From the NCBI GenBank assembly GCA_008632985.1, contig QPGO01000244.1, positions 29,916 to 93,915 on the forward strand: 64,000 nt of DNA, read 5' to 3'. A program made the translations under genes and the position numbers. Positions 572-60,816 of this stretch are shown here, piece after piece (position 1 is the stretch's first letter; every line of letters begins with the position of its first letter). This DNA is from Psammoneis japonica. Taxonomy: Eukaryota. The notes beneath the pieces are model-generated. The model did no database searches. It had not been told where the DNA came from and saw only the letters and a program-made list of their open reading frames with translations.

Positions 572-645
572 CGCTTCCTCTGCGAAATCTGCAAGTTAAG
601 TCAATCGATCTTAAGCTCTCGATTCCACTTTACTCTGCTGTCACT

Positions 646-6385: not shown

Positions 6386-6428
6386 GACGTTTTCGAGTCA
6401 TCATTCCACCCGACATTGTTGAAGGGAG

Positions 6429-6776
6429 TGTGACAATATTCATATTTGCATGTTTTTACAACAACATCGGACCTCCACGATTCCAATCAGAGATCCAAGA
6501 TTCGAACCCCGTGTGCGATGCTCAGTCTCGAATCCCGCGGAAGCCGAGTCACGAATGCGATGTTTGTTCCTAGCTTCGCGCTTGTTTAACTTCGCGTTTC
6601 CTTTAGATGGCAGCTGCATCTGCTCATAAAAACTGCTCATAATCTTTCTAACGTACTGATTATCACCTCTCTACTTTTGGTTCAATAAAGTTTACCGATT
6701 GATTGTTGTGTCGCAATCACAGCTTTTAATCGCTGAAAGTGCAGACGAATCTTAGAATTCTGGCTACTTTCCCACA
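6429..6776 (+). repeat. 3' LTR of element 1 (348 bp)
   Basis: Direct repeat of 225-571, followed by the TSD. Confidence 0.97.
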
Positions 6777-12138: not shown

Positions 12139-15100
12139 TGACAGGATTTGAACAGGATTTGGGTGCGCGCAAAATGTCGCGCACTATTTAGTTTGCCGCG
12201 CACAGTTTTGTGTGCTTTAGTTCCACGCGTTCGCACACGATGCAGTTTGCTTTCGAGCCACAAGGCTCACAAGAATGATGACAGTAGCCCGATTGTGCTG
12301 ACTTGCATGTCTTTCGGCTCCTGCAACGGTCTCTGAGTGGAGACTCATCTGCCATTTAGACAGCAGCAAGGAGTCATTGTTTGAATTCTTGCCATTTGCC
12401 TTCAATTTCTGTCAGATGGGCAGCATTGCTGGCAACGACGTTCGCGTCATTGCATGCACCTCTCGCCAAGTCGACGTTCAGGGCATTGACGACCATCAAT
12501 TGGTGGACATCCCCATTGTCACCGCTGGCACCGTCATTGAGACACAGCATGGTCCCGTTGTTGCCATCCTCCATCAGCACGCATGCACGGGAAAGGGCAA
12601 GACCATTCATTCCTGTGGCCAGCTCGAATGGCACAAACACGATGTCAATGATCGCTCTGTCAAGGTGCCCAACGGCTTGCAGCGTGTTGCCACACCTGAT
12701 GGCTGTGTCATCCCAATTGACATCAAGGGTGGCTTGCCTTGTGTTGCCATGCGGCCCCACACTGACGACGAATGGGACACCCTGCCACATGTCATCCTCA
12801 CCGGAGATGACACATGGGACCCTTCCGTCCTCGATCACTCTATCACTGACAACAACCAGTGGTGCGACGTGATCTCGGACCCACAGGACGATCCCACTGC
12901 CAACCTGTTTGATGAGTGTGGCAACTGCCGTCACCATGTCGTTGTCAACAAGGCTGTCATGTCTGCCTCCTTGTCTGCCGATCACGCGTCCGCCCTCGAT
13001 GACCACCTCATTCCGAATGAAGACGTCTTCTACGAGTGTCATCTACACGCGATTGACCCCAAGGATGGTGACGTTCCGCCTCCGGAGCGCAATGTGCAGC
13101 CCACGGACCCCCCCTGCGAGTCTCTTTGGCCCCACTTTGGTTTCCAACCCACCGACACGGTTCGTCGTACTTTCGACTGCACCACGCAATGCGCCTGCAT
13201 GCCCGCCGGCACGCACCTTAAGAAGGCCTACAAATCGCCCAACCCCGCCCTTAATGTGCACCGCCGCAACGAGCCCATCGCCACTGACACCGTTTGTGCC
13301 GACACCCCGGCCGTTGACTCTGGTTGCACCAGCGCCCAACTGTTTGTTGGTGCCGAGTCTACCATCACTGATGTCTGCGGCACCAAAACGGACAAAGAGT
13401 TTGTCAACACACTTGAGGATCAGATCCGTGAGCGTGGTGCTCCATCCAAACTCATTGGCGACCGTGCTCAAGTTGAGATCAGCAACAAGGTGCTCGGGAT
13501 TCTATGAGCCCTCTTTGTCTCCAGCTGGCAAAGCGAGCCTCACCAGCAACACCAAAACTTTGCCGAACGTCGACACCAGACTGTGAAGTGCATGGCGAAC
13601 ACCGTCATGGACCGTTTCGGTTCACCTGCCCACACATGGCCACTGGCGCTCATGTGCATGTGCTTCATGCTCAACCACACAGCATCCCCACGTCTCCACT
13701 GGTGCACGCCCCTCGAGACTCTCACTGGCTCCACCCCGGACATCAGCCCATTGCTTCGCTTTCACTGGTGGGAACCCATGTGCTTCCACCTCGATGACTC
13801 CGATTGGCCGTCTGAATCCCATGAGTTGCGTGGACACTTTGTTGGGATTGCTGAGCACGTCGGCCACCAGATGATCTTTAAGATTCTTTCTGACGACACT
13901 CAGAAGATCCTCTGCCTGTCCAATGTACGTTCCGCTGCTGCCGATCCTTCCGTTCGAAACCTGCGTCTTGATCCTCCTGATGGGGAGCCACCTGAACCCA
14001 TCATCAAATCTCGCCATGACGACAACCCCGTCGATTCACCTGATGGGGAGATCAGGACACCCAAGGTGCCAGTCTTTGATCCGCAAGACATCATCGGATG
14101 CACCTTCCTCATGCAGCCACAAGAGGACGGACAACGCCACAGAGCTCGCATCATCAAGGCCGTCGAAGATCACGACTGGAAAGTGAACGGCAACCCTGAG
14201 CTCACTAAGTTCATCTGCTCTGTCAACAACGATGAATACGAGGAAGTCCTGGCCTGCAATGACATCATGAATCACATTGAGCAAGAAGACGAAGACACTG
14301 CTGTTTGGAAATTTTGACGCATTGTGTCACACGAAGGACCTCTGAAGCCTCATGACCCAACCTGGAAAGGCTCAAGCTACAACATTGTGCTTGAATGGGA
14401 AAGTGGGGAGATCACGTCCGAGCCTCTTGCCATCATCGCCAAGGATGGCCCTGTCACCTGCGCCATCTGTGCACAAGAGAACGGACTTCTCGACACTGAT
14501 GGCTGGAAGCGGTTCCGCACCATCGCGAGGCGCCAGAAGAAGCTGTTCCGCATGGCCAACCAAGCCAAGCTTCGCTCCTTCCACACTGCACCTCGCTGCA
14601 AGTGCAGACACGAAGTTCCCCAGAACTGCAAACATGCCATGTCACTAGACGAACGCAATGGCAACCGCAAATGGGGAGACGCAACCAATCTCGAGATGGA
14701 CCAACTCGATGAATACGAAGTCTTTCATGACTGCGGGCCCTCCGAGTCTTCCACTCCTCCTGCGGGACACAAGAAGATCCGAGTGCACCCAGTGCACGAC
14801 GTGAAACACGACGGCCGCCACAAGGCACGACTCACAGCCGATGGACACCTCACGGACGTGCCCATCGACAGTGTCTGCTCCGGAGCAGTCTCCCTTCATG
14901 GCCTTCGGCTGATGATTTTCCTGGCCGAACTCAACGAGTTGGAGACATGGGCCACCGACATTGGCAATGCCTGCCTTGAAGCCACCACCAAGGAGAAGCT
15001 GTACATTGCAGCTGGACCCGAATTTGGCAAACTCGAAAGCCACATTCTTGTCATCCACAAGGCCCTGCATGGACTGCGCAGCTCCGGCCTCCGCTGGCAC

Positions 15101-16601
15101 GAGTGCTTCGCTGACTGCCTGTGAGCTGAAGGTTTCTTCCCCTGCCACGCGGAACCTGACATTTGGATGCGCAGGAACGGCGACCACTGCGAACATGTTG
15201 CCGTTTGTGTGGATGACCTCCCCATTGCCATGAAGGACCCTCAATCTTTCGTCGACACTCTCACGGAAAAGCACAAGTTCAAGCTCAAGGGCACGGGACC
15301 GATTGAGTTCCATCTAGGCTGCGACTTCTCCTGGGATCCTGACGGCACCTTGTGCCTGTCTCCGCGCAAGTGCATCGAATGCATGGTCGACAGCTGCACA
15401 TGACTGTTTGGGGAGAAACCTGCCACCAATGCCCTGTCCCCTCTGGAGAAGGGTGACCACCCCGAACTGGACACTTCTGAACTGCTGGGGCCCGATGGCA
15501 TTCAACAGTTCCAGTCTCTTGTTGGTTCCCTCCAATGGGCAGTGTCCCTTGGTCGAATTGACATTGCCACGGCCGTCATGTCACTCTCTAGCTTCCGAGC
15601 TGCGCCCCGTCAAGGCCACTTGGATCGTGCCAAACGTGTCTGTGGGCACCTCTCCAAGATGCGACACGGCTCTCTCCACGTTCGCACGGAAGAGCCCGAC
15701 CATTCGGATCTCCCTGCACCGGCCTGTGAATGGATGCATTCCGTGTGCGGCAAAGCAGAGGAGATGATCCCGAAGGATGCTCCACCGCCCCTTGGCAAGT
15801 TTGTCACTGCCACCCACTACGTCGATGCAAACTTGCATCATTGCATGCTCACCGGACGCTCTGTCATGGGAATGCTCCACTTCCTCAACAAATTCCCGGC
15901 TGATTGGTTCTCTAAGAAGCAAGCCACCGTAGAGACTGCAACCTGTGGGTCTGAATTTGTTGCCGCAAGGACTTGTGTTGAGCAGATTGTCGACCTGCGC
16001 ATCACCCTGCACTGCCTCGGAGTCCCGATCCGTGACATTGGTTGCATGTTCGGTGACAACAAGTCGGTTGTAGACAGTGCCACCATCCCGCACTCCAAGT
16101 TACACAAGCGACACACTGCGCCATTGTTCCACCATGTGTGTGAGGCAATTGCCTCTGGTTTCCTTGAGCTCCACTTCATCGAAGGCTCCCGCAACCCTGC
16201 TGACATTCTCAGCAAGCATTGGGGTTGCTCCCAAGTCTGGGACCTTCTCCGCCCCCTCATGTTCTGGAACTTCATTCCATCCGAAGTCGAATCTGTTTCT
16301 GTGACTCCTCAAGCAAACTGGGGAGTGACAGGATTTGAACAAGATTCAGGTGCGCGCAAAATGTCGCGCGCTGTTTAGTTTGCCGTGCACAGTTTTGTGT
16401 GCTTTAGTTCCGCACGTTCGCATGCGATGCAGTTTGCTTTCGAGCCACAAAGCTCACAAGAACAATGACAGCAGCCCGATCACACTGACTTGCACGTCTT
16501 TCGGCTCCTGCAACGGTCTCTGAGCGGAGACTCATCTGCCATTTAGACAGCAGCAAGGAGTTGTTGTTTGAGTTCTTGCCATTTGCCTTCAATTTCTGTC
16601 A
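12139..16601 (+). mobile_element. Ty1/copia (CoDi-like) element 2: gag-deleted, degenerate pol
   Basis: 276-bp LTRs at 12139-12414 and 16326-16601; TSD AATGG at 12134-12138 and 16602-16606; pol motifs IAGNDVRVI, IATDTV, DVKHDGRHKARL, VCVDD, VDANL, GSEF, NPADILSKHW with internal stops. Confidence 0.95.
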
Positions 16602-18069: not shown

Positions 18070-21000
18070 ATGAGCACCGACAGAGAAGAAGCATACGCTA
18101 ACCTTGAATTTGAGGACGCCAACATATCATGGTACGTCTTTAAAAAGGAGCGTTCATCAGTCAATTACTGTACGAAGAACGTTGACTTGCATGTGTGTCC
18201 AGAGACACGACTGACGGAGAATTCTTTTACTTCATGCATCATCCCTTTTTTTAATCGCAGGCAGCCAATTTATGTTTCAATGGTTCTGACTTCGGTTCAG
18301 TGTGTATTTTTATTAATTGTCTTTGAATGTGCTAGACGGAATAAATTTGTAGAGTCGGTTTACGACAGGCGGAGAGGAGTCTATGAAAAACGAATGCCGC
18401 CCCCTCTTCGAAAGCGCAGCGGCTGCTTGAACGGTTGGCTGGCGTTTGAATGGTGGAAGTTTCGTGTGGCGGATAAGGAATACCGACAATTGAGTATCGA
18501 AGAGTATAATATCGAGAAAGAGCGGCGTCGAAAGGAGAACATCAACAAGAGCACTGACGAGCAGCGCCGAAACGATGACCTCTTGACAAAAGCCGAGAGA
18601 CAATGCTACCTGAAGTCGCCCTTTTACAACCGGTGTGAGGAAGAAGACGATGACTTATCAGCAATGGAAATGGATGAAAGAGACGATCGGAGCTTTAGCC
18701 CTGAAGGGGAAGTGCTTCAGGAAGGGAAAATGAATATCACAGAAGAAACATTTCAACTTGATGCGTTGAAGAACGTCTCGATGACTCACGACGAGACAGA
18801 TTCAAACTCCAAAGAAATGGAGAATCCATCAGAGACACCCATGTGCCTCAAACAATCATTGAATTTAGAGAGTGAAATGTGTGAATACGAGAGCGGTGTT
18901 CCAGCCAAGGGCAAAATGCAGCAAACCGCGAGGCAAAGCACGAGTTCCCTTACGTCGTTTCGCAAATCCTCCGTGACGAAGCCTTCATTGCGACGAAATA
19001 TCAGTTTATCATCGATTGCAAAATCTGACAGTCCCTCTCCAAAAGGTGGAATTGTTCGTCGAATCGCCTCGTCGTTACGGAGTCCGCGAAGCCAAGCAGG
19101 AGACATTACAGTGGGAAGCGAAGAAGCGGAACGACTTGCTAGACTTCGATTTTCAGAGCCAGAAGAAAGCGAGAATGCGAGAAAACGAAACTTATTGTCA
19201 ATTTCCTCTACAATTTCAAAATTTGTGAGGACGCGAATCCTTCTTATACAAGATAAACCTGCTCAAAGGGGTCCGTCGGAGGACTACGTGGCTCATCACG
19301 ATGTAGCGCGGCGGTCACTGACGGAAGAAGATCAAGAAGTTTTGCGTTGTGTCGGTCTAGACGCTTTCATGACACTGCGGTTTCTGCTTTTTGGGTTTCA
19401 TGTCTCGTTTTGGCCAATGTGTCTAGCGCTTCCCCTTCTACTTCCCACTTACATGACAGCCAATGGCCCAGCTATCAACGGCTTTTATAGCACGACCATT
19501 ATTGCGGTGGAAAAAGGGAGTTGGAGGTTCTGGATTGTGATGCTTTTGCTTTGTTTGCAGTTTCTCTTCATCCTTCGGCGAATATGGACTGAATGGGAGC
19601 TATTCTTACCGTTACGCTACGATTTTTTAGAGCATGGAGACTTCACGAAAGAGAAATACAAGGAACAATACCGGGAAACGGCTATAGTCGAGTATGTCCC
19701 GTCATCGCAGAGACACGATAAGTATCTCTACTCGTTCTTTGACACGGTCTTTCCGGGTCAGATTAAACACGCAGAGGTGCTGTTGAACATTGAGCACTTG
19801 AGAAATCTGCGACGCGAACGGCTAGAACATATCGTGGCTTACGAGAACATCTACGCCAAGATGGTCCACAAACGAGCAGATTTTCTTCGGCGTTTGGTAC
19901 ATTCCTTCGAGAAAGAAGGTAGCACAAATCGATGCTGCCTCGCCACAAGGAGACCTCGTGAACCAAAGGAACCAACCGTTGTGATTCAACGACATTTGAG
20001 GGGCAAGATCCCTTTAGATGCTTCAGAAAATTTCCCTGTGACCTGTCCGGCTCTAACTTATCACCATGAGTACGTCGTGAATTGATCGCAGCAAGCGTGC
20101 ATGGACTCATCTCCGGCAGCTTTCTTACCTCTGTTTCCTGTCTTTTGTATGCATCACAGCATGATTCAGAAGTTAAACAACGAGATCGACACCGAATATA
20201 TTCGTCTAGCACAGGAGCAGCGCCGAGCAATTCCTAAAACAAAGAAATCGAGCTTGACGAAAAGGCTTGGTTTGACCCATCTCATAACTTCAGAAACCGG
20301 TCACGTGCATTCAAGCACGGCTTTCGTAGAGTTCCGATCTCTTGCCGCCAAACAACACGCAATCCAGTGCAATATTGCGGGCACGAAGAAGTGCATGGTC
20401 GTGTCACCTGTACCGGAAGTCCGAGACCTGATCTGGGGTAATGAACATGTTTCGAGGTAACTTCATTTATGTCGTTTTTGTTGCGCTTTTCCTTGTGAAT
20501 AATCAAAATCTCATTATTCCAATTGTTGTTTTTGTCTCTCTAATCACAGATCTCTGATTGTTACACGCATGATGTGGATTAACGTGCTGCTGGCTGGCTG
20601 CTTAGTGCTTTGGTCCCTTTTGGTGTCACTTATTCGCAGCTACGACAAGTACAGTGACTGGTTCGAAGGGGATCTCGCCCAGACCCCGACTGCCGTAGCC
20701 CTCTTGAATGTGTACTTACCTGCGCTTGTCGTAGAAGGTCTCGTTAGAATTATACCATTCTTCATCAAGCTTCTTTGCAAGTGGATTCGATTCAAGTCGG
20801 CCAGTGAGACTGACCATTACATATTACGTTGGTACTTTGCGTACCGCCTCTTCACTTTCATCTTTGTGATTGAGGGGGATCACCTGATCGATCAGAGTGA
20901 CAAATTAATTGATGACCCAGTTGGATTCTTGTTGGAACTGAGTCGGAAGGTTGCCGCCAACTCGCAGTTCTTTATTTGCTACGTTATTATTACGGTCACT

Positions 21001-22022
21001 CTGCTATTGGTGCGACTGTCGCAAATTCATAACGTTGTTGAGTTTTTCTACCTTCACAACATTGTGCGAGAAGAAGCACTTTCTCAGCGACGCCTTGACA
21101 AGCTAAGGACCAACTTGAAGGTAAGACCGCAAGCTCATGGTCGACCTTACGGCGCACGCTTGTGTTCTGACGCATCTTCTCCGCCCTTTGATATGTACAG
21201 ATTTTTCACAAGGATGAGTTCATCCCACTCTTCATATTCGTCTTCATGGTGGGAGCCTTGTACGGAGTGATTGCGCCGCTCAGTGGCGTCTTTGTGTCGG
21301 GCTTCTTTCTTGTCGCCTACAAAGTTGTGAGGTTCATGTCACTGTTCATTTACGGCAACAACTATGAGGGTGGCGGCTTTCTATTCTACACGCTCTCGAC
21401 AATTCTATTCTGTGTTTTATACTTGATTATTATTGTGTTGGCCTGCTATCTGTTCTCCCACCAGTCGGAGGCCGCCGCAGGAATATTCTTGTCGCTTCTG
21501 ATCGTCACTTTCTTTGTTCACTACAGAGTTCACTTGACGTTTGTAGAACCGTCAAAGACGCTCTCTTTAGCCAAGGCGCGAGAATTTGAGCAAAAACACG
21601 ACAACCGAAGTCCTCATCAACGCAAGCTAGAAGCATTTCTGGCGTCCAAACTGGCATTGGACGAGGAAGAGGAACGATTAGATGCTGGTGCTGTTGAAGA
21701 CCATGAGGAACATCTACATCTCTTACTCTCTCCATCAGATGCTTCCTCTGCTGAGTTCAGTGTTCGAGCAGTCATGCCATCCGATGAAGTGGGTCTCCCA
21801 GACAGTGAGAGGCTCAATAAGGCGATCGATCGCTTCCAACGGCGTTATGAAGAGAACAATGATGACTGCCTGTCCGAAATCACCGACAGCGATGTGGATT
21901 TGTCCGGTCCACCGAGCGACTTCTTCATATATCGCCAGCCGTCCTTGAACCGCGCAACCTGGGAAGTTTCCCCCCGGCCGTATCGGGAATCTGGTCTGAG
22001 AGAGGCCAGCATGAAATGGTGA
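18070..22022 (+). CDS. OSCA/TMEM63 (CSC1/ERD4-like) calcium-permeable mechanosensitive channel, copy A
   Basis: GLDAFMTLRFL, TAFVEF and PEVRDLIWGN motifs plus multiple TM segments; GT-AG introns at 18132-18260, 20070-20159, 20457-20549 and 21121-21200. Confidence 0.88.
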
Positions 22023-22443: not shown

Positions 22444-25400
22444 ATGAGCAGCGGCAGCAACGGAGGCCTCAATGACGATATTGTGGAATTAGAGGATGCC
22501 AATGCATCATGGTGAGTGTCCTAGTCGTATTTCGAAAGATACTTCAACGTTGTATTTTTGTCGATTTCGCAAGGTTTGACTCGACGACTCGTTGGAGCTG
22601 TGATTACCTTACAATCCCGTTTTTTGCCTTACCTCTGAATGGCCACCAACATTTTGTCCGCAGGCAACCGATATATGTTTCTATTGCGATTACAATAGTT
22701 GAAAGTGTCTTCTTTTTGGTAGTATTTGAATGCGCGAGAAGAAACAAGTTTGTAGAATCAGTCCGAATGCCACCACCCCTCAGAAAGCGCAGTGGCCCTT
22801 TGAACGGATGGTTGGCTTTTGAATGGTGGCGATTTCGTTTGTCAGATACAGAATACCGCAGACTCTGTGTGGAGGAAGCTCGTTTGGAGAAACAGCGGCG
22901 TCGATTAGCAGATACGGATGATGACGACAAAACAACCGACCCCTTTGTTGTTAGAGCAGAGCGGCTCTGTTTCAGAGAGTCACCTTTCTTTGACCCATGC
23001 CAAGAGGAGGACAGTGATATTGACGAAATGGAAGCCGATTCACATGTAGAGAATGTCGTTGAGTGCGAGCCAGAGGATAGGAAGACGTGCGAAGAAGTAT
23101 GCGCCGATAAGTCGGGTGGCCTGACAAAGGACGAGACAACACCAGAATCAACCTCTGATTCTGGAAAAGAAGTGCAACTGACAAAGACAAGCAAGTCGAA
23201 GAGAAAACATAGCATTTTGCGGAAATCGACAAGAATGGAAGCTAGCGATGGTTCCTCACTCGGGAGCAGATCACCGGGGCGGACGAAAAAAGGTGTACTG
23301 AATCTCTCTTCTGGGAGCATTTCCCGACGAGTTAGGTTTAAGAATCGAATGAGTTTTTCAGTTCAAACGCCTCGAAGTAGTGATGGTGATATAATCATGG
23401 GCACAGAAGAGGCCAGTAGGCTTGCGAAGCTGCGATTCTCGCAGTATACGGTCACTGAAGACTGGGACAAGCGCACTCTCTCTGGTTTGCTCAAGTTCAT
23501 AAGGAGACGGGTATTACTGATCCAAGATAAGGACCCACGTACCGGTGAACCACAGAACTATCTCTCAGAAGATATAGCACGGCGGCCGTTGTCAGACGAA
23601 GACCAAGAGCTGTTGCGATGTGTCGGGTTAGACACTTTCATGACACTGCGGTTTCTTCTATTCGGCTTCCACATCTCTCTCTGGCCCATGTTCATTTCGC
23701 TCCCTATCTTGCTTCCCCTCTATCAGACAGGGAATGGTCCAGCTTCTGTCGGTTTCTATAGCACGACAGTCATTGCTGTTGAAAACGGAAGCTGGAGGTT
23801 CTGGGTTGTAATGGCTTTGCTTTACCTACAGTTTCTCTATATTCTGAGGAGACTGTGGACGGACTGGGAGCTCTTTCTGCCGCTACGATACGATTTCCTT
23901 GAAAATGGGGACTTTCCCGAGGAAAAGCACAAGAGACAGTACCGTGAGACAGCACTTGTGGAGTATGTTCCGACGGCACAGAGGCACGACAAGGCTCTGT
24001 ACTCTTTCTTTGACAATATATTCCCGGGCCAGATCAAGCATGCAGAAGTGCTACTGAACAACGAGCATTTGAGAAAGCTAGTTCAGACTCGAACGAAGCA
24101 CATTGTTGCATATGAAAACGTTTACGCAAAGAAAGTTCACAAACTCGCAGAATATTTGAGGTATCTAGACGAATACGCGAAGGGCGGGAGACTAAAGAGA
24201 TGCTGTCTTGTCACAAAGCATCTCCGCGAACCTAAGGAACCGACTACCATTGTTGTTCAAAAAGAGGCGCGTGAAAACCTACAAAATAAATTGTTAGACT
24301 TGGTCCCTCTGAGCAGTACTGTTAAAGACGCAAGGACATATCCCGCACTCCAGTATCACTACGAGTAAGTGACTTGTTCAAACGTTGCCCTGTTGCCGAT
24401 GAGACTTTACATTTAAAAATCGTGCATTCTCTCTTATCCTTGCTGCAGCATGATTCAACAGTTGAATCATGAAATTGATGCTGAATATATTCGTTTGGCA
24501 CAAGATCAACGGCGAGAGATCCCGAAGAAGAAGAAATCCACTTTAGCAAGAAAGCTAGGTTGGGAGTATCTCACTGGTTCAGTCTCCGGTGACTTGCATT
24601 CGAGCACCGCCTTTGTAGAATTTCGATCGCTTACGGCAAAGCAACAAGCTATTCAATGCAACATGGTGGGAACGAAGAAAAAAATGGTCGTAACACCTGT
24701 ACCAGAAGTTCGAGACGTGATTTGGGGAATGAGCACGTGTCGAGGTAAGTCGGCCACTTTGTTTCATTCGTCAAGGGTCTGCTTCGCATTTTTAATGCAA
24801 TCTCCTCATATTCTACTTGTTAACTTTCTTCATGCTGTTCATTGCATTTCAAGAGCACTAATTGTTACACGCAGGAGGTGGGCAAGCGTTTTGCTAACGG
24901 GAGGGCTACTACTCTGGTCCTTTCTGGTAACAGTGATTCGTGGATACAATGAGTACAGTGACTGGTTCAACGCTCAGAACGCATCTCTAGTTGCCCTTCT
25001 GAATGTGTACCTTCCCGCGCTATTGGTTGAAGGCCTTGTCAGGATAATTCCGTTTTTGATAAAGCTTCTTTGCAGATGGATTCGTTTCAAATCTGCGAGC
25101 GAGACTGACCACTTCATTCTTCGCTGGTACTTTGCCTATCGCCTCTTTACCTTTATCTTTGTTATTGTCGGTGACGACTTAGTTACCCAGAGTGACGACT
25201 TGATTGATGACCCAGTTGGGTGGCTGCTGGAATTGAGTCGGAGAGTAGCCGCCAGCTCTCAGTTTTTCATCTGCTACGTCATTATTACAGCGGCATTGCT
25301 CCTGGTGAGAATATCGCAGATTCACAATGTTGTTGCGTTTTTCTACCTTCACAACATCGTGCACGAAGAGTCACTGTCGCAGCGACGACTCGACAAATTG

Positions 25401-26304
25401 AGGACCAGTATGAAGGTACAGTTTAGTGCCGTTTCTTGCTTTGGTTTGAAATCCCATCTCACAGAGAGTTGCGCGTATTGTACGTGTTTCTAAACAGATT
25501 TTTCACAAAGACGAATTCATTCCGTTGTTCGTTTTTGTTTTCATGGTGGGAGCCTTGTACGGAGTCATTGCACCGCTCAGTGGCATCTTTGTCACAGGCT
25601 TCTTCCTTTTGGCGTACAAGGTTGTAAGGTACATGGCTCTCTACATCTACGGTAACAAGTATGAAGGTGGAGGGTTTCTGTTTTACACGCTTTCGACGAT
25701 TCTGTTTTGGGTTCTGTACTTGATCATTCTCGTGTTAGCTGGCTACTTGTTCGCTCATGAATCACCGGCCACTGGTGGTATATTTCTATCACTCCTCCTT
25801 ATCACCTTCTTCGTTCATTGCTACGTTCAATTGACCTTTGTAGAGCCATCGAGGATGCTTTCTTTAGCAAAGGCTTGTGATTTTGACAAGAAACACGATG
25901 TACGCACTCCATACGAACGAAAACTGGGTGCATGGATGTCGGCCAAGCAAGCTTTAGACGAAGAAGAGGAAAAAATGGCGTTTGCCATTGACGGAACTCC
26001 GGAAGATCATCAACTCCGACATTCTTCTGCGACAGAGTCAAGCGTCGATGTGCGATCATTGTCAGATGATCAGAATCTGACTGACAGCGAAATATTTCAA
26101 AAAGCAATTGACCGGTTTCAACGGCGATACGAAGAAAATAGAGGCGACGCCTATTCAGACCTCACTGACAGCGAGGTCTCCGCTGTCACAGGCGACTTCT
26201 TCATTTATCGCCAGCCTTCGTTGAATAGGGCGACGTGGGAGGTCGAGCCTAGGCCATACAGGGATGCTACTGTCGAGAGAAACGCGGTTGAAGTGTGGCG
26301 GTGA
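22444..26304 (+). CDS. OSCA/TMEM63 channel, copy B (tandem paralogue)
   Basis: Same motifs and four matching intron positions (22512-22663, 24365-24448, 24745-24853, 25416-25497); 1-bp frameshift at ~24727 in a G run, probably an assembly error. Confidence 0.88.
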
Positions 26305-35461: not shown

Positions 35462-38400
35462 ATGATGTTGTCACTGTTCATCCTCGCCTTGTCCCTGGTT
35501 CTGTTGCCCTGCACCTCGCAGCCAGAGCTCATCAGCAGCTTCGACAGCTGCACCGCGATGAACAACTGCCATGTCAACAAGGTGCTGCTGCTCATCGGTC
35601 CATGCGGCCTCAACTCCCACAACACCTGCACACCAACCCAAAATCCAGAGTTTGCCGGCAAGCCAGGCCGTCCGGGCGGGCCCGCTGGGCTGAAGCTCTA
35701 CAAACCTTTCGAAGACCCCAAAGTCATCGAAAAGGGAAACATCGCCGAAGGCAATTCTTTCATTGATGATGAAGACAACGAAGAAGGCAAGGAGGAGGGC
35801 AAGGACTTCTTGGGTGCCAATGTCCAGGTAAAGGGCGTCAACAAGGCCAACATTGTCAAGACTGATGGTGAGATGGTGCATGCGATCTTGGGCTCAAAGT
35901 TAACTGTCATCAAGGTCCTCAACGAGGGTGGGGGCGGAAGAGTCACTGGAACAATCCAACTGCCCACCCGCCCGGACGACATGCTGCTCGAAAAGAACTT
36001 TGTCGTCGTCATTGGTTGCGACCGTAACTGCAAACACAAGGTCCAACGATGGTGCAGACGCCATCCATCGCGTGGTGAGGACTCGACTGTTTTGTGCCAA
36101 ATCCGCATCAAGAACTACAAGCCGAAGCTGATTTCAACGCTTCATCTTGAAGGATCATGCGTCAAGGCACGTGAAACAGACGGCGTTGCACAAATCGTGA
36201 TCAAATTCAACCCTTTGCAGTCCATCTGGCTGCACAGGCCCAACCGCACATGCAAGTTGGATCAGACACTCAAGTGGAACCAGGAGATCATTGAATGCTC
36301 AAGGGCTGGGAATTGGCTGCCAACCTGCAAGCTTCAAAAGGGAAAGCAAACACAGGTTGGCGTGTGCGGGTCATGCAGTGACCTGCACCATTCGCCGGAT
36401 GTGTTCTCGGGCTTTTCGATGCTCTCAGCAGTGACGCTGCCACTCAACAAACTCATGACTCCAATGTCATCAAACTCAATTGTCTCTGACACTGAGGCTT
36501 TGCATGTGACCAAGCAGTTGATGCATGTGACGACCAACGAGTTCCAATTTGGCAATGTGCCCAACAGCGCCAACCGTTGGGGTCCGAACTGTCAGACACA
36601 TGTCCACCAATTTAGCCTGAGCGAAACGGGGGTGACACACAGAGCATCTGGTCAAATCACCGCAAGCGAGTGTGCTTCACTGCCCGAACAGATTTCAACG
36701 CGTGGCTTTGCTCAAGTCTTGTCTTTGTTTGCTGCTTGCAGGGTGGCGTCCTCAACCGATTCTCCATGCACGAGAACGACGGCCACTTCTTCATTGCGTC
36801 GACCGTCGGGGCCTCTTGGTGGACGGGGCGGTCACTCAGCGAGAGCAGGGTCACTTCATTCAAGATCAACGACAACAAGGGCTTGCTGAAGCCTGTGGGC
36901 CTTGTTGAAGACCCAGGCGTCGGCGAGCGCATCTTTGCGGCGCGACATCATAAGGACATTGCATGTGTTGTGACGTTTGGGGAAACGGATCCGCTCTGTG
37001 TCATCGACTTGGCAAATCCAAAGAAGCTTGAAGTCAAGGGAGAGCTCAAGATCCCTGGCTTCAGCGCGCATCTTCACAGAGTGGAGGATGGGAGAGTCCT
37101 CGGTGTTGGAAAGGACGTGGCAAATGGAAGGACATTGGGAACCAAGGTGTCGCCATTCAACATGAGCGATGAAACAAACCCGAAGGAACTGTCAGTGTGG
37201 ACACTCCGAGGAAGCTGCTCCGAGGCTGAGTGTTGGAAATGGTGAATTAGAAGTTCAAACATCAAAACTAGACAGCGTGAAGAAGACGCACGTGCCAGCG
37301 CTCATGTGCTCCACGTGAAGCAACAAAACAGCCGATGGAAGCAGTCATTGTTCTCTTTTGACTCTTAGAAAGCATTGTGATAACAAGCTTGTCTATTTCA
37401 GCCTCAGGATCAGACCTTAGAGGACTGAGGTGGCTCTGGAACAGTCACCAGAAGGATAAATTGCAACAGTTAAAAGAGAACAATCCAGCTGAGAGCTGTG
37501 AAAAGAAAGTAAGAAAGAAAAGAGTCATTCTCACGGTGTGAGACATTTTACTGCTTTGCCTTTTTTCATCATGAGCGGAAGAGGCAAAGGTAGAACTGGC
37601 AACAGAAGCCAAGGAAAAGGAGCCTCAGGAAGGGGAAACAAGAGTGGCAAGCAAAGCCACAAGGGCATCAATGATTGTGTCCACTGTGTTGGAAGTGCCA
37701 AGCAAGCATCTGATTTTCAGATTGCCACTGAGTTCATCATCAACTACATTGAGAAGACTCACGAGTTTGGAAATGACATTGCAACTGCACTCAACACTTG
37801 CACTCCATGTGACATGAGTTCTAAGAAGCCGACTTTGCAGGTCAGCTTGACTGGAGATGACAAGGTGGACGCGCCATTGAACAAACAGCATGAAATTGAG
37901 TTCAAGACAGAATTTGATGCTCACGTTAAGAGGACCCAAACTTGTGAGAACAACCTTGTCAAGGCTTGTGCTTTGCTCTGGGAGAGATGCTCCAAGGCCA
38001 TGAAGAACAAGATTCAAGCAAGAACCGAGTTCCAAACCAAAATTGAAAACGATCCCATAAAATTGCTCAAGGCCATTGAGGAGCATGCATTGAACTGCCA
38101 AGAGCACAGGTGTGACATGGCTGTCATCTCAGATTCAATGAGAGCGGTGCTGGAAACCAAGCAGAAGGAGAAGGAGAGTCTCCAAGATTGCGCCAAGAGA
38201 TTCAGGGTTGCAAGGGACATCATGAAGTCTCACATTGGAGGACCGATTGTCCTCACCAAGGCAGTGCAAGGCATGTCAGAATGTGACGAGCACAATGCAG
38301 ATTCTATCAAGAAGTGTCAAGAAAAGGCGTTCAGCCAATTGATGGGTTGCATGCACTTGGAGAACGCAGACCAGCGCAAGTGCGGATCAATTCTAACAGG

Positions 38401-41400
38401 ATTGAACACTCAGCAGTCCTTCAAGAATGACCAATGTCCCAAGTCTGTTGCGGAAGCCAACACGGTGTTGAGCAACCACACTTTTGACTACGTTGGTCAG
38501 CCTGACAACTGCCGCAACAGAAACAATCGAAACAACAACTCTGACTCCAAGAAACAAGAAGGAAACCAAGAAATCACGCTGTCCTTCGCTCAGTTAGAAG
38601 GCAAGTGTTGCTGCTGTGGCAAGGCCAGACACAATTCCAACAAGTGCTGGGAAAGGCAAGGAAAACCTCAAGCAGAATGGGCCATCAACAAGGCCAAAGC
38701 TAAGCAAGAAGCAAGCAACGCTCAGGCAAGTGACGATGCCAGTGCAGCCAACTCTTCTGCCAAAGAATCCACTGGAACAAAATCTGCTGTTTCAGGATGG
38801 GCTGGCACACACATCGATGCATCTCTCTGCCAGGATCAATCTGGCAGCATGAGAGACTGGATTTTATTGGACAACCAGTCCACAACCACAATCTTCTGCA
38901 ATGAGAAGCTTGTTGCAGACATCCGTCCATCGGATGAAGCCATGCGTTTGCACACCAACGGCGGAGTCCTAGTCACGACATGCAAGGCCACGGTGCCAGG
39001 GTTTGGTGAGACTTGGTTTAACCCAGATGCAATCACCAACATTTTTGCTTGCTCTGACATGAAGAAGAAACACAGAATCACAAGTGATTCTAAGCAAGAC
39101 AACGCATTCACCGTTCATCTCCCCAACAAGAAGGTTGGGTTTGTGGAGGACGGAAAAGGGCTGCACTTTTACAAGCCCAAGACAAATGACACTGGAACTC
39201 AGCTCCAATTTGTGCAGAGTGTGGAAGAGAACAAGAAGTTCTACACTCCACGACAGTTCGAGAAAGCCAAGAGGGCTAGGGAATCATTGCACGCCTTGGG
39301 AAACCCAGCCGTGAATGATCTGAAGGCCATCATTCGCATGAACAGCATCAAGAACAATCCCGTCACAACGGAGGATGTAGATTTGGCCAAGAAGATTTTT
39401 GGAGCAGACATTGGAAGTCTAAAAGGCAAGGTCACAAGGAAGAAGCCGGAGCCAGTTGTAGAAGACTACGTGGAGATCCCGAAGGAGCTCAACACAAGGT
39501 CACTCTTTGCCTGGACGGTCTCAAGGTGAATGGATTGCCATTCCTCACCACAGTGTCACGAAACATTTTTTATCGCACGGCACAACCGCTCAAGGACTTG
39601 ACCCAACCAACTCATCAAGAAGCTCTGGAAGATGTGCTGCAAGTCTACAACAAGGCCGATTTGAAGGTCACACGCATTCGTTGCAACAACGAATTCAGGC
39701 CCATTGGGAATGCACTAGAAGACAAGTTTGATCTCAAGATGAACTGCGCAAATGCTCAGGAGCATGTCCCAGAAGCCGAAAGAAACAACCGAGTTATTCA
39801 AGAACGTGCCAGGGCAGTCTATCATCCGCTGCCATTCAAGCATCTGCCAAAACTCATGGTCGAAGTCATGGTCACCGAAGCTGCTGAGAAGCTCAATTAT
39901 TTTCCAGCCAAGCACGGCGTTTCCAAACATTACAGTCCAAGAATGATTCTCCATCAAAAGAATCTAGACTGTGACAAGAGCTGCAAGATCACGTTTGGCA
40001 CTTGTGTGCAAGCTCACAATGACCCGGACCCCAAGAACACACAAGAGTCACGGACCTTGGATTGCATTTGTTTGCGCCCCACCAACAGCAACCAGATTGG
40101 ACATGAGTTGCTGCACTTGCAAACCGGCAAGAAGATCACTTGTCACAAGGTCACCCCTGTGCCCATCACTCCCGCCATCACAAAGCAGGTTCATCGTTTG
40201 GCTGAAATGAACAAGATGCCCAATGGTCTCAAGATTCAGAACCGCACTGGAACTGTTTTGTACAACAGTGCTTGGCTTGCAGGAGTGGATTGTGATGAAG
40301 ATCAATTTGAAGACGAAGATTGTGATCTAGAAGAAGACATTGAAACTGAAGACGATGAGGAAGAAGAGCTGGACTGGGGAGACCATGACAGAGTTAGTCA
40401 AGAAGAGCTGCAAGACATAATTCGAGAACAAGAATTGGATGAAGAAGCCAGCCACATCAGTGAAGAACAAGACGAGACTCAAGAAGAAACCTCCAATGAT
40501 GAGCATCTCGGAGACAATGACGAAGTTGGTTCTCAACCATCAGACGGCAGCGGAATTTTCACAAGAAATCGATGACATGATTGACCACATTGATGAACAA
40601 CAGAGGCTGGAACAAGAGAAGGAACACTCTCCGGAAGTGCAAGAGATCATCAAACGAAATGAAAGACCTGGAACATGAGGATGAATCTGGAGAGGAGCAG
40701 AGTGAAACCGAAGAAAGTGTCCAAGAAGAGCCTGTTGCTGCTGTTGCTACATCCAGGGCAGGAAGGACTCTGAAACCTCCAGTTAGATTGGGAGACTGCC
40801 AATGCCATCTACAGACTCAAGCTCATTCACAAGAAGAAGAGCACAGCTTAGAAACGGCCAGAATCATGGCCATGACAATGTGTCAGTGGAACGAGAAGGT
40901 TAGCACGATTTCCACTGATGAAGAAGCACATCAATTTATTCAGACTTACAGCTTGGCACGAGGACTCCAGAAGTTTGGAGAAGAAGGCCACAAGTCGGCA
41001 GTGTCAGAGCTGAAGCAAATCCATGACAGAGTGGTTTTCAAACCCATTCACATCAATGACATGACTCCTCTGGAGAGGAAGAGAGCCATGGAGAGCCTCA
41101 TGTTTCTCACAGAGAAGAGAGATGGACGAATCAAGTCAAGGTTGTGTGCAAACGGAAGCACGCAACGAGAGCACATGGACCAAGACGAAACCGCCAGTCC
41201 GACAGCATCCACAGAATCTGTTCTCATTGCAGGAGTGATTGATGCTGAGCAAGGCAGAGACGTTGTGACAGCGGACATCCTGAACGCATTTGTGCAAACG
41301 GACATCGAGGTCAAGGATGAAAAGATCATCATGAAGATCCGTGGAAGGATGGTGGACATGTTGCTGGAATTGGATTCAGACACTTGCCAGGACTGCGTCG

Positions 41401-43172
41401 TGTGCGAAGGCAAACACAAGGTTCTCTACGTTGAAATGTTGAAGGCACTCTACGGAATGCTGGTGTCCTCCATTCTTTGTTGCAAGAAGTTCCGCAGAGA
41501 CATCGAAGGAATCGGATTTGAGATTGGTCCTTATGATCCATGTGTCGCCAACCGCATCGTGAATGGAAAACAACACACGGTGACATGGCATGTGGACGAC
41601 TTAAAGTCTGGTCACGTTGACAGCAAGGTCAACGATGAATTCAAGATTTGGTTGGACAAAACTCATGCGGATGAGATCGGAAAGGTCAAAGTCACGCGTG
41701 GAAAGAGGCACGACTGTCTAGCCATGACTCTAGATTGCTCCATTCCAGGAGCGCTGCAAGTTGACATGGTGCTTTGTGTGCAAGGAATGGTCAAGGAGTT
41801 CTTCAAGGAATTCCCAGAAGAATTGTCGGGTGACGTGGATTGCCCGTGGAGCGAGAAGCTCAACAAGGTGGATGAGACAGCCAAGAAATTAGATCTCAAG
41901 CATGCTCGAGCATTTTGCACTTTTGTGATGAAGGGCATGTTTGTGTGCAAGAGAGCCAGACAGGACATTCAGCCTGGCACTGCTTTTCTCTCCACCAGGG
42001 TCAAGGATCCGAACGAATCGGACTGGCCAAAGCTGGTGAGGCTCATGAATTTCCTCAAGACAACCCAGCTTGATGTCGCAGTCATGTCGGCTGGAGACAA
42101 AGTCATCATCGAGTGGCACACGGATGCCGCACTCGCAGTCCATCCGGACTGTAAAAGTCACACAGGTTCTGCCATGACCCTTGGAAAAGGTGTCATTGCA
42201 TCAGTCAGCATGAAGCAGAAGATCAACACCAGGAGTTCTACAGAAGCAGAGTTCGTCGCAGGCGACGATGTTTTGGCAAAGGTCCTTTGGACCAAGCGAT
42301 TTGTTGAAGCTCAAGGTTTTGAAGTCGAGCGTAACATCATGCATCGAGACAACCAAAGTTGCATGAAACTAGAACAAAATGGAAAGGCCAGCTCGGGCAA
42401 ACGCACGAGACATTTCAACATCAAGCATTTTTACATCACTGACCTCATCAAGCGAGGAGAACTTGAGATTAAGTTCTGCCCAACGGACAAGATGATGGCA
42501 GATTACATGACCAAACCAGTGGTTGGTAAAAAGTTCATCATTGATCGTCAAGCCATCATGAACATCCAAGTGCCTGAGATGGTCAAATTTGGAAATAGCA
42601 AGAATCTTGTCATTGGTCAGCAGGAGTGTGTTGGAAATGGTGAGTTAAAAGTTCAAACATCAAAATTAGACAGCGTGAAGAAGACGCATGCGCCAGCGCT
42701 CATGTGCTCCACGTGAAGCAACAAAACAGCCGATGGAAGCAGTCATTGTTCTCTTTTAACTCTTAGAAAGTATTGTGATGACAAGCTTGTCTATTTTAGC
42801 CTCAGGATCAGACCTTAGAGGACTGAGGTGGATCTGGAACAGTCACCAGAAGGATAAATTACAACACTGAGTGGGACAACCGAGCATTCTTGCACTGGGA
42901 AAAAGCTGAAACTCGACATCATGCCGCTTGTGATTTATGGATGTAGAACTTTTTATGGCGCCATTGTCCTCCAAATTGCCGACAAGAAGATTGTTGAGAT
43001 CGGCCGTGTCCAGCACTTCATTCCTGGACGCCGTTGCCATCCGCGAATCCTGAGAAACCTCGTGACAGGAAAATTCTTGTGGTCCATGTCGTCAGAGCAG
43101 CTCCAAATCAACGAACTGGAAAACATCGAAAAGAAGAGAGGCACTGTTGGCATTGCGCAACATTGGATGTGA
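35462..43172 (+). pseudogene. Beta-propeller-domain protein gene (Beta_propel family-like) split by copia element 3; parts at ~35462-36661, 36742-37230 and 42872-43172
   Basis: Motifs NVQVKGVNKANIVKTDG, GGVLNRFSMHE, ERIFAAR...VVTFGETDPLCVIDL.NP..L...GELKIPGFSAHLH. The frame resumes after the TSD as SEAE|WDNRAFLHW. Intron at 36662-36741. Confidence 0.85.
37231..42866 (+). mobile_element. Full-length Ty1/copia element 3 (gag-pol from ATG 37571, frameshifts near 39490 and 40570)
   Basis: 238-bp LTRs at 37231-37468 and 42629-42866; TSD CTGAG at 37226-37230 and 42867-42871; WILLDNQST protease, HVPEAERNNR integrase, KALYG/WHVDD RT, SSTEAE...DN...ADYMTKP RNase H. Confidence 0.97.
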
Positions 43173-43729: not shown

Positions 43730-44232
43730 GGACACAAGTGGCATGTGGACGAGTTTAGACTTGGCTTGACAAAACTTACGCAGACGAAATTGGAAAGGTC
43801 AAAGTGACGCGTGGAGAACTTGAGATTAAGTTCTGCCCAACAGACAAGATGATTGGGGACCGGCAAGCCTGTGGTGGGCAAGAAGTTCATTGTTGATCGT
43901 CAAACTATCATGAAGATCGTCAAACTATCATGAACATCCAAGTGCCTAAGATGGGCAAACTTTGAAATGCAAACAATGTTGTCCTTGGTCAGCAGGAGTG
44001 TGTATGTTGGAAAGTGTGCATCTGAAGCACAAATGCCGAAATGAAATAGCGTGAAGAAAACGTATGCGTCAGCGCTCATGTTGTGTTCCACGTGAACCAC
44101 GAAAACTGCCGATGAAGCAGTCATTAATCTCTTTTAACTCTTACAAAGTATTGTGATAACAAGCTTGTCTATTTTACCCTCAGGATCAACCTCAGAGGAT
44201 TGAAGTGGCTTTAGGACAGTCGCTCTAGAAGG
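43730..44232 (+). mobile_element. Internally deleted 3' fragment plus diverged LTR of an element-3 relative
   Basis: Matches 41585-41703, then jumps to 42457-42628, then a diverged LTR copy from ~44005. Confidence 0.85.
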
Positions 44233-44525
44233 GTGCATCTCAAACGACACGGAGGCTATTCGGAATAAGCAAGACATTTACGACTGGGTTGAAAGGGGAG
44301 CCATGCTACAAAAGCAGGAATTGAAATTAACATATAGTATGCCATTAGAGGAGTTCCAGAGACATAAAAGCATTAGCGAGCAGAGAGTTCTCTTTGGCAA
44401 CGTTTCATCGTTTGACATGCTTTCACAAGCCAACACATCATTTCAAAATTTGAAACGAAGAGCCAAGGCTGACTTTCTCTTGTTCTCAATGACTCGGCGA
44501 GAGTGGCTACTACCGTATACTTGGC

Positions 44526-53519: not shown

Positions 53520-54010
53520 TGCCCCAGCTTGGCAATGGCATCCTGACATTCTGCCAGCTCGGCAATGGCATCTGGCAATCCGACATGGTGTTCTCGAGAG
53601 TCCGAACATGGTCTGCCAGTTTGGCGATGGCATCCTGACATTCTGCCAGCTTGGCAATGGCATCCTGATGATCCAACATGGTGTTCTTGAGAGTCCAAAC
53701 TTGGTCTGCCAGCTTGGCAATGGCACCCTGACAATCCGACACGGTGTTCTCAAGAGTCTGAAAGTGGTGTGCCAGCTCAGCAACAGCATCCTGATGTTCC
53801 ACCAGCTCGGCAATGGCATCCTGACGTTCTGCCATGGTGTTCTTGAGAGTCTGAAAGCAGTTTGCTGGCTCAGCAATGGCATCCTGACATTCCACCAGCT
53901 TGGCAATGGCACCCTGACATTCTGCCATGGTGTTCTTGAGAGTTCAAATGTGGTTTGCCAGCTTGGCAATGGCATCCTGACATTTCACCAGCCCGGCAAC
54001 AGCACCCTCA
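53520..54010 (-). repeat. Coding-type tandem repeat (30- and 69-bp units), a decayed coiled-coil ORF
   Basis: Recurring GCCAGCTTGGCAATGGCATCCTGACATT; the minus strand reads E(C/H/R)QDAIAKLA..(F/V)xTLENTM. Confidence 0.8.
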
Positions 54011-55539
54011 ACAGTTTCGTTGGATTTCTTGAGTTCGCCAGTGGATGCCGCCAAGCAGCGCTGCCTCCTTTCCCTTGCACGCTGATTTTCTGATGAATTG
54101 CAAGGGGAGTGCTGGTGTGCTTGATGATGCCAATGCGATGCCTGCTGCCACGTTGTTGCTTTCCCCAGTGAGCGAAAGGCAACAACAACACACAGTCATC
54201 ACAACGGCTGCAACGCGGTCAGTGGCAAGGTGGCGCTCATGCTCAAATCTTGCCTGGTGTTGTTTGTGGCCGGCCTGTGATTGTTCCAGTGGCTGAGCCT
54301 CCTCCATGTGGCACCGCAACAACCAAGCACTGCACACGACTGCTCAAGCATGACTGTGCAGCATGAGCCGTGTTTTCAGTCTGTCATGGTTGCCTGTGTT
54401 GGCTTGCCTCCATCACATCACATGATGACAGCCGAGTGCTGCACGTCTTGTGCTCTCATTTTGTTGTTGCTGCCAGACCTGCATGCTGCTTGCAAGCAGC
54501 CATGGCTGCAAACAACAACAGTGGCTGCAGGATGCACAGGTGGAATGAAGGTGATGATGCCGGGGAACTTTTGGGCCATGTGCACAACCCTCGCAGCCCT
54601 GACATGATGTTCGCTCATGGAAATTGTCTCGCCAGAACACGTGGACAGAGCCCAGAATCTGAGCGGAAACTGGAGGTTGGTGTGCACCACCATGTTCCAC
54701 AAACACTGCAAGAGCATTGTGAAGCCAATCTTCCAGGCCGCGCCTCCTCCTGTGCCCACCGCCCACCCTCCCTCCTCTTGCAAACCCACCTCGCAACACC
54801 ACTGGGGTCATCCTCCACCTGGGCATCACTGTCCTCAATGCTCAAGGTGGTCAAGTTGAGCAATGCCAGCATTTTGCTTCATCAGCTCCACACAGGTTCT
54901 GACCCTCTTTTGTTGTTTTCTCTTGGGCCCAGATTTGGCTGGCATTGTCACAGCCACAGCACAAGGCCAGGTGACAGCCAGCTGGCAGCATCCTCTGAGA
55001 TTTTTTGTTGTGGGACAATGCACGTCTTGTGCTCTCATTTTGCCATTGCTTCCAGACCTGCTGAGAAACGTGCCTGATGCTGCCACCCTTTCTAAGAAAT
55101 GCAATTTGGCTGCTGCAGCCCACTCAGTGAACAGACACATGTGTGCGCGGCTGGCTGTTTCAATGTTGGATGCCCTGCCACTGCTCCATGTTGAAGCACA
55201 TTGCTGGACACTTCCATGGCAACAAGCACTGGGGCATCACCTGCAAGAAACCTGGCCAAGACAACCCCAAGTTGCCCGCCTTCCCCAAAATGATGATCCC
55301 TTCCAGCTTTGCCAGCTGTTTTGGTTGGGTTGGCCAGTCGTGTGTCGTCTGCATCAACCATGATGTAAAATCAAGAGTTCAGACCAAAGTTGTTGCAGTG
55401 GCCTTGAGTGTGTTGGAAAGCACCTCAGATTTCTTTGAGAAGCAAGCCAGTGCCAATGATGCTGACCACACCAAAGTCCAGAGACTTGGTGCAGAGCCAA
55501 AGCAATCTGGTGCAGCATCACATTCTCCAGCTGCACCCG

Positions 55540-60135: not shown

Positions 60136-60816
60136 ATTGAAAAGAAAGTGAACGATTGTGATTGAAAGTGGCTGTGTCGTAATTTGGGCAAAGGAAGTTT
60201 TTATGAGGTTGTGTCGTCGTTTGGTGCAAGCATTTCTCGAAGTCGCGGTTCTGTGGCGCAAGCAGTTTTCTACCCGCGACTCAATATCAAAATCGCGACT
60301 CGACTCGATCCGCGCCATCTAGTACATGATCCATGTAGAATGTACAGTACGTACGACCCCTACATGCTGTAGGTTGACATCTTCGCTCAGAGTACATACA
60401 GTGCTGAGACTGTGAACACTTGGGCATGTCTACCGGTAGAAGGTACCGCAGTACCGTATTATGTACGAAGTACCTTACTTCTTGTACTAAAGCCTAACCA
60501 ACCTTACTGCGTACGGTACATAGGGCCCTACAGCTTTCGGTGTCGTTTGCTCTTGTTTTTGGTCGCGGCGTGACATGCCTTCCCGCGCGACTGCGTGCGC
60601 CCTGCATGCATTCTCGCCGCAAGGCGAAGAAGGATGCCACACATTTTTTCTGAAAATCCAAATTCCAAATTCTGTTGAAGCTTGGCCAACGTACGGATGA
60701 CGTCGGGGGTCTGAGGTCGGTGCGGTGTCAACTCTAGGGCCCTACGGTACTGTAGCGCAGCGCACACAAAAAGTCAGTGACACTAACTGACAACTGACAA
60801 CTGTGACGATTTGACG

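Follow-up and report, generated by a model that had tools for sequence, protein, structure and literature searches.

The stretch of Psammoneis japonica DNA analysed here (64,000 nucleotides (nt), referred to as the window, in whose numbering all positions are given) contains at 37231-42866 a long terminal repeat (LTR) retrotransposon, element 3, which is best read as a broken, old copy of a diatom-type Ty1/copia element whose lineage primes minus-strand DNA synthesis with its own RNA, as does Tf1 of Schizosaccharomyces pombe. The probability of this reading is estimated to be roughly 0.78. It is carried by the complementarity of the primer-binding site to the element's own LTR and by the finding that, across 39 distinct elements, this complementarity is kept by compensatory change and reflects neither chance nor shared ancestry.

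The primer-binding site of element 3 and its own LTR

The first 16 nt after the 5′ LTR (37469-37484) read GTTAAAAGAGAACAAT, and their reverse complement, ATTGTTCTCTTTTAAC, is found without mismatch in the 3′ LTR at 42745-42760. The match extends to 17 nt via pairing of the T at 42761 with the last base of the 5′ LTR, A 37468. In the copy within the 5′ LTR (37347-37362), a single mismatch is present, with G instead of A at 37360. In the RNA, this G would form a G-U pair with the T at 37471, so that 16 Watson-Crick pairs and one G-U pair result with the 5′ copy; G 37360 is a change that occurred after insertion. A third LTR copy in the window (44123-44138) shows two mismatches and carries the arm variant ATTAATCTCTTTTAAC. 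As the target duplication CTGAG flanks the LTRs, the 16-mer starts at the first base after the 5′ LTR. An earlier note on this DNA had described the 16 nt as lacking TGG and as an exact complement of the 3′ LTR segment, the 5′ LTR copy as one change off, and the match as beginning at the A of a TCATT motif (37345-37349); all of this was confirmed from the sequence.

For the 27-nt segment that spans the LTR end, 13 nt was the longest complement in the 5′ LTR and 17 nt in the 3′ LTR, while shuffled sequences reached a maximum of 10-11 nt. A chance origin of the complementarity was rejected, since none of 2000 shuffles of either LTR attained the observed length.

Two other copia-type elements of the window (225-6776 and 12139-16601) were compared in the same way. 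In both, the complement to the own LTR amounted to only 6 nt, a length that was reached by about 1350-1390 of 2000 shuffles and corresponds to chance level, and both were rejected as self-priming candidates for that reason. Their post-LTR sites begin with CGCTTCCTCTGCG... (element 225-6776, without TGG) and GATGGGCAGCATTGC... (element 12139-16601).

Covariation of the two arms among relatives

An alignment of the reverse transcriptase and RNase H region (RT-RH; alignment A1), used to scan metagenome contigs, yielded 79 loci with 38-67% amino acid identity. Many of the contigs run from the pol end through the LTR to the gag start, or overlap at their ends. The named RT-RH relatives obtained in a protein search were from the diatoms Fragilaria, Nitzschia, Epithemia and Attheya, and it is on these that the diatom link of the 79 metagenome loci rests.

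An LTR/leader junction is held by 42 of the 79 loci, and all 42 revealed a perfect complement of 13-17 nt between the first bases after the LTR and a segment inside their own LTR. In a first set of 30 junctions (29 loci and the window copy), defined by a pol match followed by a gag match, this perfect pair was the longest inverted repeat in every case; one arm lay at the last LTR base or directly after it and the other 54-158 nt upstream, inside the LTR. At each of these junctions, none of 100 shuffles reached the arm length. A wider search of the remaining 49 loci added 12 more (L008, L011, L013, L014, L030, L058, L061, L065, L068, L075, L076 and L079), and in L017 the pair was found between the leader and the 3′ LTR. 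The resulting 43 elements (42 loci and the window copy) comprise 39 distinct arm sequences, with an arm length of 16 nt in 17, 15 nt in 13, 14 nt in 6, 17 nt in 2 and 13 nt in 1. Compensatory change between primer site and LTR, to which the earlier note had pointed, is thus present in all 42 loci with a junction, and the self-priming proposed there is supported by own-LTR pairing together with covariation across relatives.

The pairing is specific to each element. Among the 28 distinct elements of the first set, the longest complement of the site was 13-17 nt in the own LTR and 5-10 nt in the LTRs of the other elements (756 cross pairs). The arms have little in common except A/T richness, with a mean G+C content of 19%.

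For covariation analysis, 27 stretches covering R-U5 and the primer site were aligned with plain MAFFT, not fitted to the helix (alignment A2). RNAalifold predicted a single helix on A2, formed by the first nine arm positions, with two-sided changes in 9/9 pairs. Paired cells made up 90.9% compared with 58.8% in shuffles, cells with a two-sided change numbered 79 compared with 21.9, and the covariation score was 0.818 compared with 0.208 (0/500 shuffles for each measure). Upon sliding the partner by 1-3 columns, 44-52% of the cells paired and the score was 0.10-0.17.

The arm helix was also part of the minimum-free-energy fold of the RNA from the arm to 30 nt past the site in 30/30 elements. 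For seven loci forming a subgroup, the 5′ ends were misaligned by MAFFT, and RNAalifold therefore missed the arm helix. Here, RNAalifold revealed a U5 helix of 8 pairs close upstream of the LTR end, 6 of them with two-sided changes; across all 27 aligned sequences, this helix was not seen. The U5 helix recalls the U5-IR stem that Tf1 reportedly requires.

In all 39 distinct elements, the downstream arm starts either with the last LTR base (position -1) or with the first base beyond the LTR (+1). The LTR ends with CAACA in 36 of them and with CAAGA or TAACA in the other three; among the CAACA elements, the last A belongs to the pairing in 25, and in 11 the pairing begins with the next base. A TCA stands before the upstream arm or provides, with its A, the first arm base, and the motif TCAHW with H at arm position 1, 2 or 3 was found in 26/39 distinct elements (15, 10 and 1, respectively). 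According to the accessible text of Kadono et al. (PMC4686930), TCAH(+1)W has been proposed as an initiator-like motif of diatom genes; applied to the window, it would place the transcription start at 37348, one base past the 37347 suggested in the earlier note.

Directly after the upstream arm, CTTAG, CTAAG or CTAGT is present in 19/39 distinct elements and at least CT in 28/39, as counted from the table of arms. In L004 (128-180), the LTR arm is directly followed by four tandem copies of CTAAGACT, i.e., the usual post-arm motif in repeated form. After the primer site, no conserved block of at least 10 nt was found among the 39 distinct elements, only a loose CCG. Many relatives (e.g., L009, L010 and L018) show a small hairpin together with this loose CCG in the first 10-30 nt past the site. 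Arm position, initiator-like TCA and post-arm motif are, as indirect evidence, what a 5′-terminal primer with a defined cut site would need.

Proposed priming mechanism and alternative readings

According to the mechanism proposed for the lineage of element 3, transcription would start in the 5′ LTR at or beside the A of TCATT (37347 or 37348), and the first 14-17 nt of the RNA would fold back across about 55-160 nt of R-U5. The partner of the folded-back RNA start would be the site starting either with the final base of the LTR or with the one that follows. The element's RNase H would cleave the RNA where the duplex ends on its 3′ side, immediately ahead of the frequently conserved CT(T/A)AG, and the reverse transcriptase would extend the freed 3′ end through U5-R.

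Several points weigh against self-priming in this form. Where transcription starts, where R ends and where RNase H cuts are predictions. None of the contigs of the 79 loci ends in poly(A) or begins with poly(T), and of the 12 contigs with printed ends none starts at the arm. At the arm start, 13/39 distinct elements have CCA, TTA or GCA and no exact TCAHW. At 37 of the 79 loci, no pair was seen at an LTR/leader junction. The four of these that were inspected by eye (L005, L016, L045 and L072) have the LTR part or the site missing, and most of the others, judged by their layout, have no gag start adjoining the LTR. Inverted repeats were also found downstream of pol, with 16 nt in L038 (3414-3477) and 12 nt in L041 (1830-2023). 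Over its first nine positions, the arm is rich in T and A and conserved in part, and shuffles of A2 still paired in more than half of the cells, as given above; part of the pairing therefore reflects shared sequence. Finally, element 3 itself is dead, and the window copy by itself demonstrates nothing functionally.

Separately, it was observed that the inverted repeat of L038 would have an unusually short loop of 32 nt.

An unlikely alternative is that the pairing is structural only, serving as a leader-closing stem or for 5′-3′ cyclisation with the 3′ LTR copy, with a function in packaging, dimerisation or strand transfer, and that another primer is used. In Ty1, the CYC5/CYC3 interaction is a long-range pairing that helps reverse transcription. 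The LTR arm is present also in the 3′ LTR part of the RNA, and it could lie in U3, given that the transcription start is a predicted one. However, the downstream arm sits exactly where a primer-binding site belongs in 39/39 distinct elements, and no other conserved candidate site follows, which would leave the element without a recognisable one. Further, in most elements the upstream arm begins at the initiator-like TCA, which is needed by a 5′-terminal primer but not by a cyclisation signal.

Just as improbable, in our estimate, is a variant of self-priming in which the primer is cut from the arm copy of the 3′ LTR or from the second packaged RNA, i.e., in trans. The arm occurs in both LTRs, two RNAs are packaged in pseudovirid particles, as stated in the accessible part of PMC8515867, and sequence data cannot separate cis from trans or the 5′ from the 3′ copy. 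The link of the arm start to an initiator-like motif, on the other hand, favours the 5′ end, the helix found in the minimum-energy fold of 30/30 elements is intramolecular, and in Tf1 the primer is described as the initial bases of the element's RNA (PMC7175516).

It is very improbable that the site binds a host tRNA fragment, for instance a tRNA-Lys(UUU) 5′ half produced by cleavage within or behind the anticodon loop as in hemivirus-type elements, and that the LTR match is incidental: the site in the window does contain the complement of CTTTTAA, which on reading the sequence resembles the Lys(UUU) anticodon loop, and some copia lineages commonly have half-tRNA sites that lack TGG (1/2 tRNA-Met in Osser, Bryco and part of Gymco-II and 1/2 tRNA-Ile in Bianca, according to the accessible text of PMC6317226; an internal tRNA-Lys region in FunCo1, PMC5445492), but the 43 elements carry 39 distinct arms whose match is always 13-17 nt in the own LTR and at most 10 nt in the LTRs of others, there would be no reason for the LTR to contain 17 nt copied from a tRNA fragment, and the arm is followed by the loose CCG only and not by a conserved block of at least 10 nt. 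As the arm sequence differs in almost every element, a shared tRNA or half-tRNA cannot be the primer. ARAGORN detected no tRNA gene in the 64-kb window. Since the site varies from element to element, priming by a tRNA or half-tRNA is ruled out as a general account.

Element structure, known systems and significance

The features of element 3 and of a second copy of its family are compiled in Table 1.

Table 1. Positions of element 3 and of the second, truncated copy of its family in the window.
Feature	Positions	Strand	Remarks
Target-site duplication CTGAG, 5′ side	37226-37230	+	same 5 bp adjoin the start of the 5′ LTR and the end of the 3′ LTR
5′ LTR, 238 nt, TGTTGG...CAACA	37231-37468	+	direct repeat; boundaries from the target duplication
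Putative U3	37231-37346	+	split from R-U5 placed only by the start of the complementarity and the TCA motif
Putative R-U5	37347-37468	+	split from U3 placed in the same way
Proposed self-primer (LTR arm), 5′ LTR copy, ATTGTTCTCTTTTGACT	37347-37363	+	TC before it (TCATT, initiator-like), CTTAG after it
Primer-binding site (taken as the pairing region), last LTR base A plus GTTAAAAGAGAACAAT, no TGG	37468-37484	+	reverse-complementary to 42745-42761 without mismatch
Gag-protease part of the polyprotein (P0001)	37571-39529	+	CX2CX4HX4C zinc knuckle; ends at frame change; collinear with relatives by tblastn
Middle part (P0002), presumed integrase	39526-40575	+	second reading frame; from position, motif reading and a weak SH3_retrovirus match in a relative
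Reverse transcriptase and RNase H part (P0003)	40581-42716	+	third frame; extends 88 nt into the 3′ LTR
Polypurine-tract region GCAGGAGTG	42620-42628	+	adjoins the 3′ LTR
3′ LTR, 238 nt	42629-42866	+	direct repeat
LTR arm, 3′ LTR copy, ATTGTTCTCTTTTAACT	42745-42761	+	complementary to 37468-37484 over all 17 nt
Target-site duplication CTGAG, 3′ side	42867-42871	+	matches the 5′ side copy
LTR of the second, truncated copy of the element 3 family	44006-44248	+	pol 3′ end from about 43850 and LTR remain; own primer site absent

The two LTRs of element 3 are 95% identical. The gag-pol region of relatives forms a single frame, as determined by tblastn, whereas it is spread over three frames in element 3. 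From the three reading frames and the 5% LTR divergence, it is concluded that element 3 is an old, dead copy. The polypurine region and LTR start, CAGGAGTG followed directly by TGTTGG (e.g., 42620-42634 in the window), are nearly invariant in the printed contigs of relatives. In the pol frame this junction is translated as QQECV, and the conserved QQECV 'tail' of the protein may really be a nucleic-acid signal.

Against the Pfam family RVT_2, P0003 scored 33.5 bits with a cut-off of 31.6, and this score, barely above the cut-off, indicates that the lineage of element 3 is divergent. Comparison of P0003 with the RT-RH of the classical copia element (2177-6385) by hhalign gave a probability of 99%. 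With its RVT_2-type reverse transcriptase and copia-type RNase H, element 3 belongs to Ty1/copia. Searches of Pfam with E values up to 1 revealed neither an integrase nor a gag family in P0001 and P0002, and Pfam revealed no integrase core (rve) in four full-length relatives; in the relative P0004, a sub-threshold SH3_retrovirus match was found upstream of the reverse transcriptase. CNNEF...AERNNR in P0002 is taken by us to be the D...E region of an integrase. From its position, this motif and the sub-threshold SH3_retrovirus match, the integrase is presumed to lie before the reverse transcriptase. The A1 profile gave only weak matches among PDB sequences, which were to acidic nucleolar proteins (e.g., nucleophosmin and Nop56). 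Membership in the Tf1/sushi group of Ty3/gypsy was ruled out by the copia-type RVT_2 reverse transcriptase, the copia-like RT-RH and the presumed integrase before the reverse transcriptase.

Element 3 is inserted in a Beta_propel gene (PF09826, 92.8 bits), the frame of which is split, with the flanks at 35462-37230 and from 42872. The truncated second copy (43850-44248) lies about 1 kb downstream of element 3 and contains a short internal duplication, with gatcgtcaaactatcatgaa occurring twice around 43895-43930.

Of the other two copia-type elements, the classical one (225-6776) has LTRs at 225-571 and 6429-6776 (94% identical), the target duplication TCTCT and an open reading frame (ORF) for a pol protein of 1402 amino acids at 2177-6385 with RVT_2 (127.6 bits), gag_pre-integrs and SH3_retrovirus. 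The third copia-type element (12139-16601) has LTRs of the form TGACAGG...CTGTCA, the target duplication AATGG and an ORF at 14324-15124 with RVT_2 (43.3 bits); its post-LTR site, given above, lacks a complement in the own LTR beyond chance. Elsewhere in the window, tandem paralogous genes at 18070-20085 and 22509-24368 encode RSN1_TM and PHM7_cyt domains (CSC1/OSCA-like membrane proteins). This gene pair is located inside a 4.3-kb direct duplication that is 72-77% identical (19300-21496 compared with 23571-25793). An array of five direct repeats, of 93 nt and in one case of 63 nt, with 61-80% identity was found at 53572-54075. For a host acetyl-CoA synthetase fragment at 60811-62082, the best matches (59-68% identity) were unnamed or came from MMETSP/EukProt transcriptomes, and the named species ranking below these were the diatoms Skeletonema, Corethron, Mayamaea and Thalassiosira with 47-55%. 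Together with the named RT-RH relatives, these matches make a diatom the most likely host.

Self-priming has been shown experimentally for Tf1 and Tf2 of S. pombe and for the Tf1/sushi group of Ty3/gypsy, where, as here, the site after the 5′ LTR complements the own LTR and no tRNA site is present. In Tf1, the RNA's first 11 bases pair with the primer-binding site, and the RNase H cut, assumed to release the primer, falls between bases 11 and 12 (PMC7175516); the same step is proposed here. Unlike Tf1, which is a Ty3/gypsy element with an 11-nt duplex, the lineage of element 3 belongs to the copia superfamily, its duplex measures 13-17 nt and often includes the last LTR base, and CT(T/A)AG or CTAGT follows the arm in 19/39 distinct elements. 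Also, self-priming is bench-proven for Tf1, whereas for the lineage of element 3 it is predicted from sequence.

Within Ty1/copia, the earlier note knew of no characterised case of self-priming. This has to be amended in that self-priming has already been predicted for the plant TAR lineage, which includes Houba and Osr-1. According to the accessible text of PMC6317226, self-priming was predicted in 89% of 203 TAR elements, the criterion being that 10 bp or more of the 5′ LTR complement a site which starts 0-5 bp downstream of the LTR, and had been proposed earlier for Houba and Osr-1 by Capy in 2005. Element 3 and TAR share the Ty1/copia superfamily, the 5-bp target duplication and the same kind of self-priming criterion. 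TAR, however, is a lineage of land plants, whereas the named relatives of the element 3 lineage are diatoms; and the accessible text of PMC6317226 contains no covariation analysis or anchoring to the transcription start site, whereas covariation is analysed here.

With the CoDi copia-like elements of diatoms (Maumus et al. 2009, PMC2806351), element 3 shares host group and superfamily, and its barely significant RVT_2 score fits the description of CoDi as diatom-specific lineages distant from classical copia. In the main text of that paper, the words 'tRNA' and 'priming' are absent, 'PBS' denotes a buffer only, and the primer site is not discussed. Hemivirus-type copia elements (Drosophila copia, Osser, Bianca, FunCo1), which are primed by tRNA halves, resemble element 3 in having the site directly after the LTR and without TGG; within a lineage, however, their sites are conserved, and they match an internal part of a tRNA, whereas here the site varies and matches the own LTR. 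The fungal GalEa copia elements (PMC5445492) likewise have no tRNA-type primer site, and an RNA structure was proposed in its place. For their 'Conserved Hairpin Site', no LTR complement was reported and the Tf1 model was said not to fit, whereas the LTR complement is the main feature here. Reverse transcription primed by a host tRNA is given as a trait of Pseudoviridae in the accessible part of the International Committee on Taxonomy of Viruses profile (PMC8515867). The lineage of element 3 departs from it, having no conserved tRNA-like site and a site that matches the own LTR.

A literature search, which did not extend to subscription journals and Repbase notes, found no report of self-priming for diatom elements. 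The sequence data suggest that the mechanism is that of Tf1 and, by prediction, of TAR, and that what is new is its presence in a divergent diatom copia lineage with unusually clear natural covariation. We tentatively propose, at slightly less than even odds, that a deep, apparently diatom-specific branch of Ty1/copia (RT-RH down to 38% identity) gave up tRNA priming and that its primer is the capped initial stretch of 14-17 nt of its own RNA, with the initiator as anchor and a cut ahead of a conserved CT(T/A)AG. Such priming would have originated separately from that of Tf1/sushi and plant TAR, or would be a relic of a self-priming ancestor, which has been proposed for LTR retrotransposons in the accessible text of PMC3601003.

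In a large lineage of Pseudoviridae, a primer site adapted to the own LTR is seen here in no fewer than 39 independent versions, which provides a clean natural covariation data set for self-priming outside Ty3/gypsy and bears on how often tRNA independence arose and on whether self-priming is ancestral. LTR-annotation tools that seek tRNA sites will miss or mis-score such elements, and silencing based on tRNA fragments would not reach them. The arm precisely predicts both the transcription start and the RNase H cut, and these predictions are open to tests in transformable diatoms.

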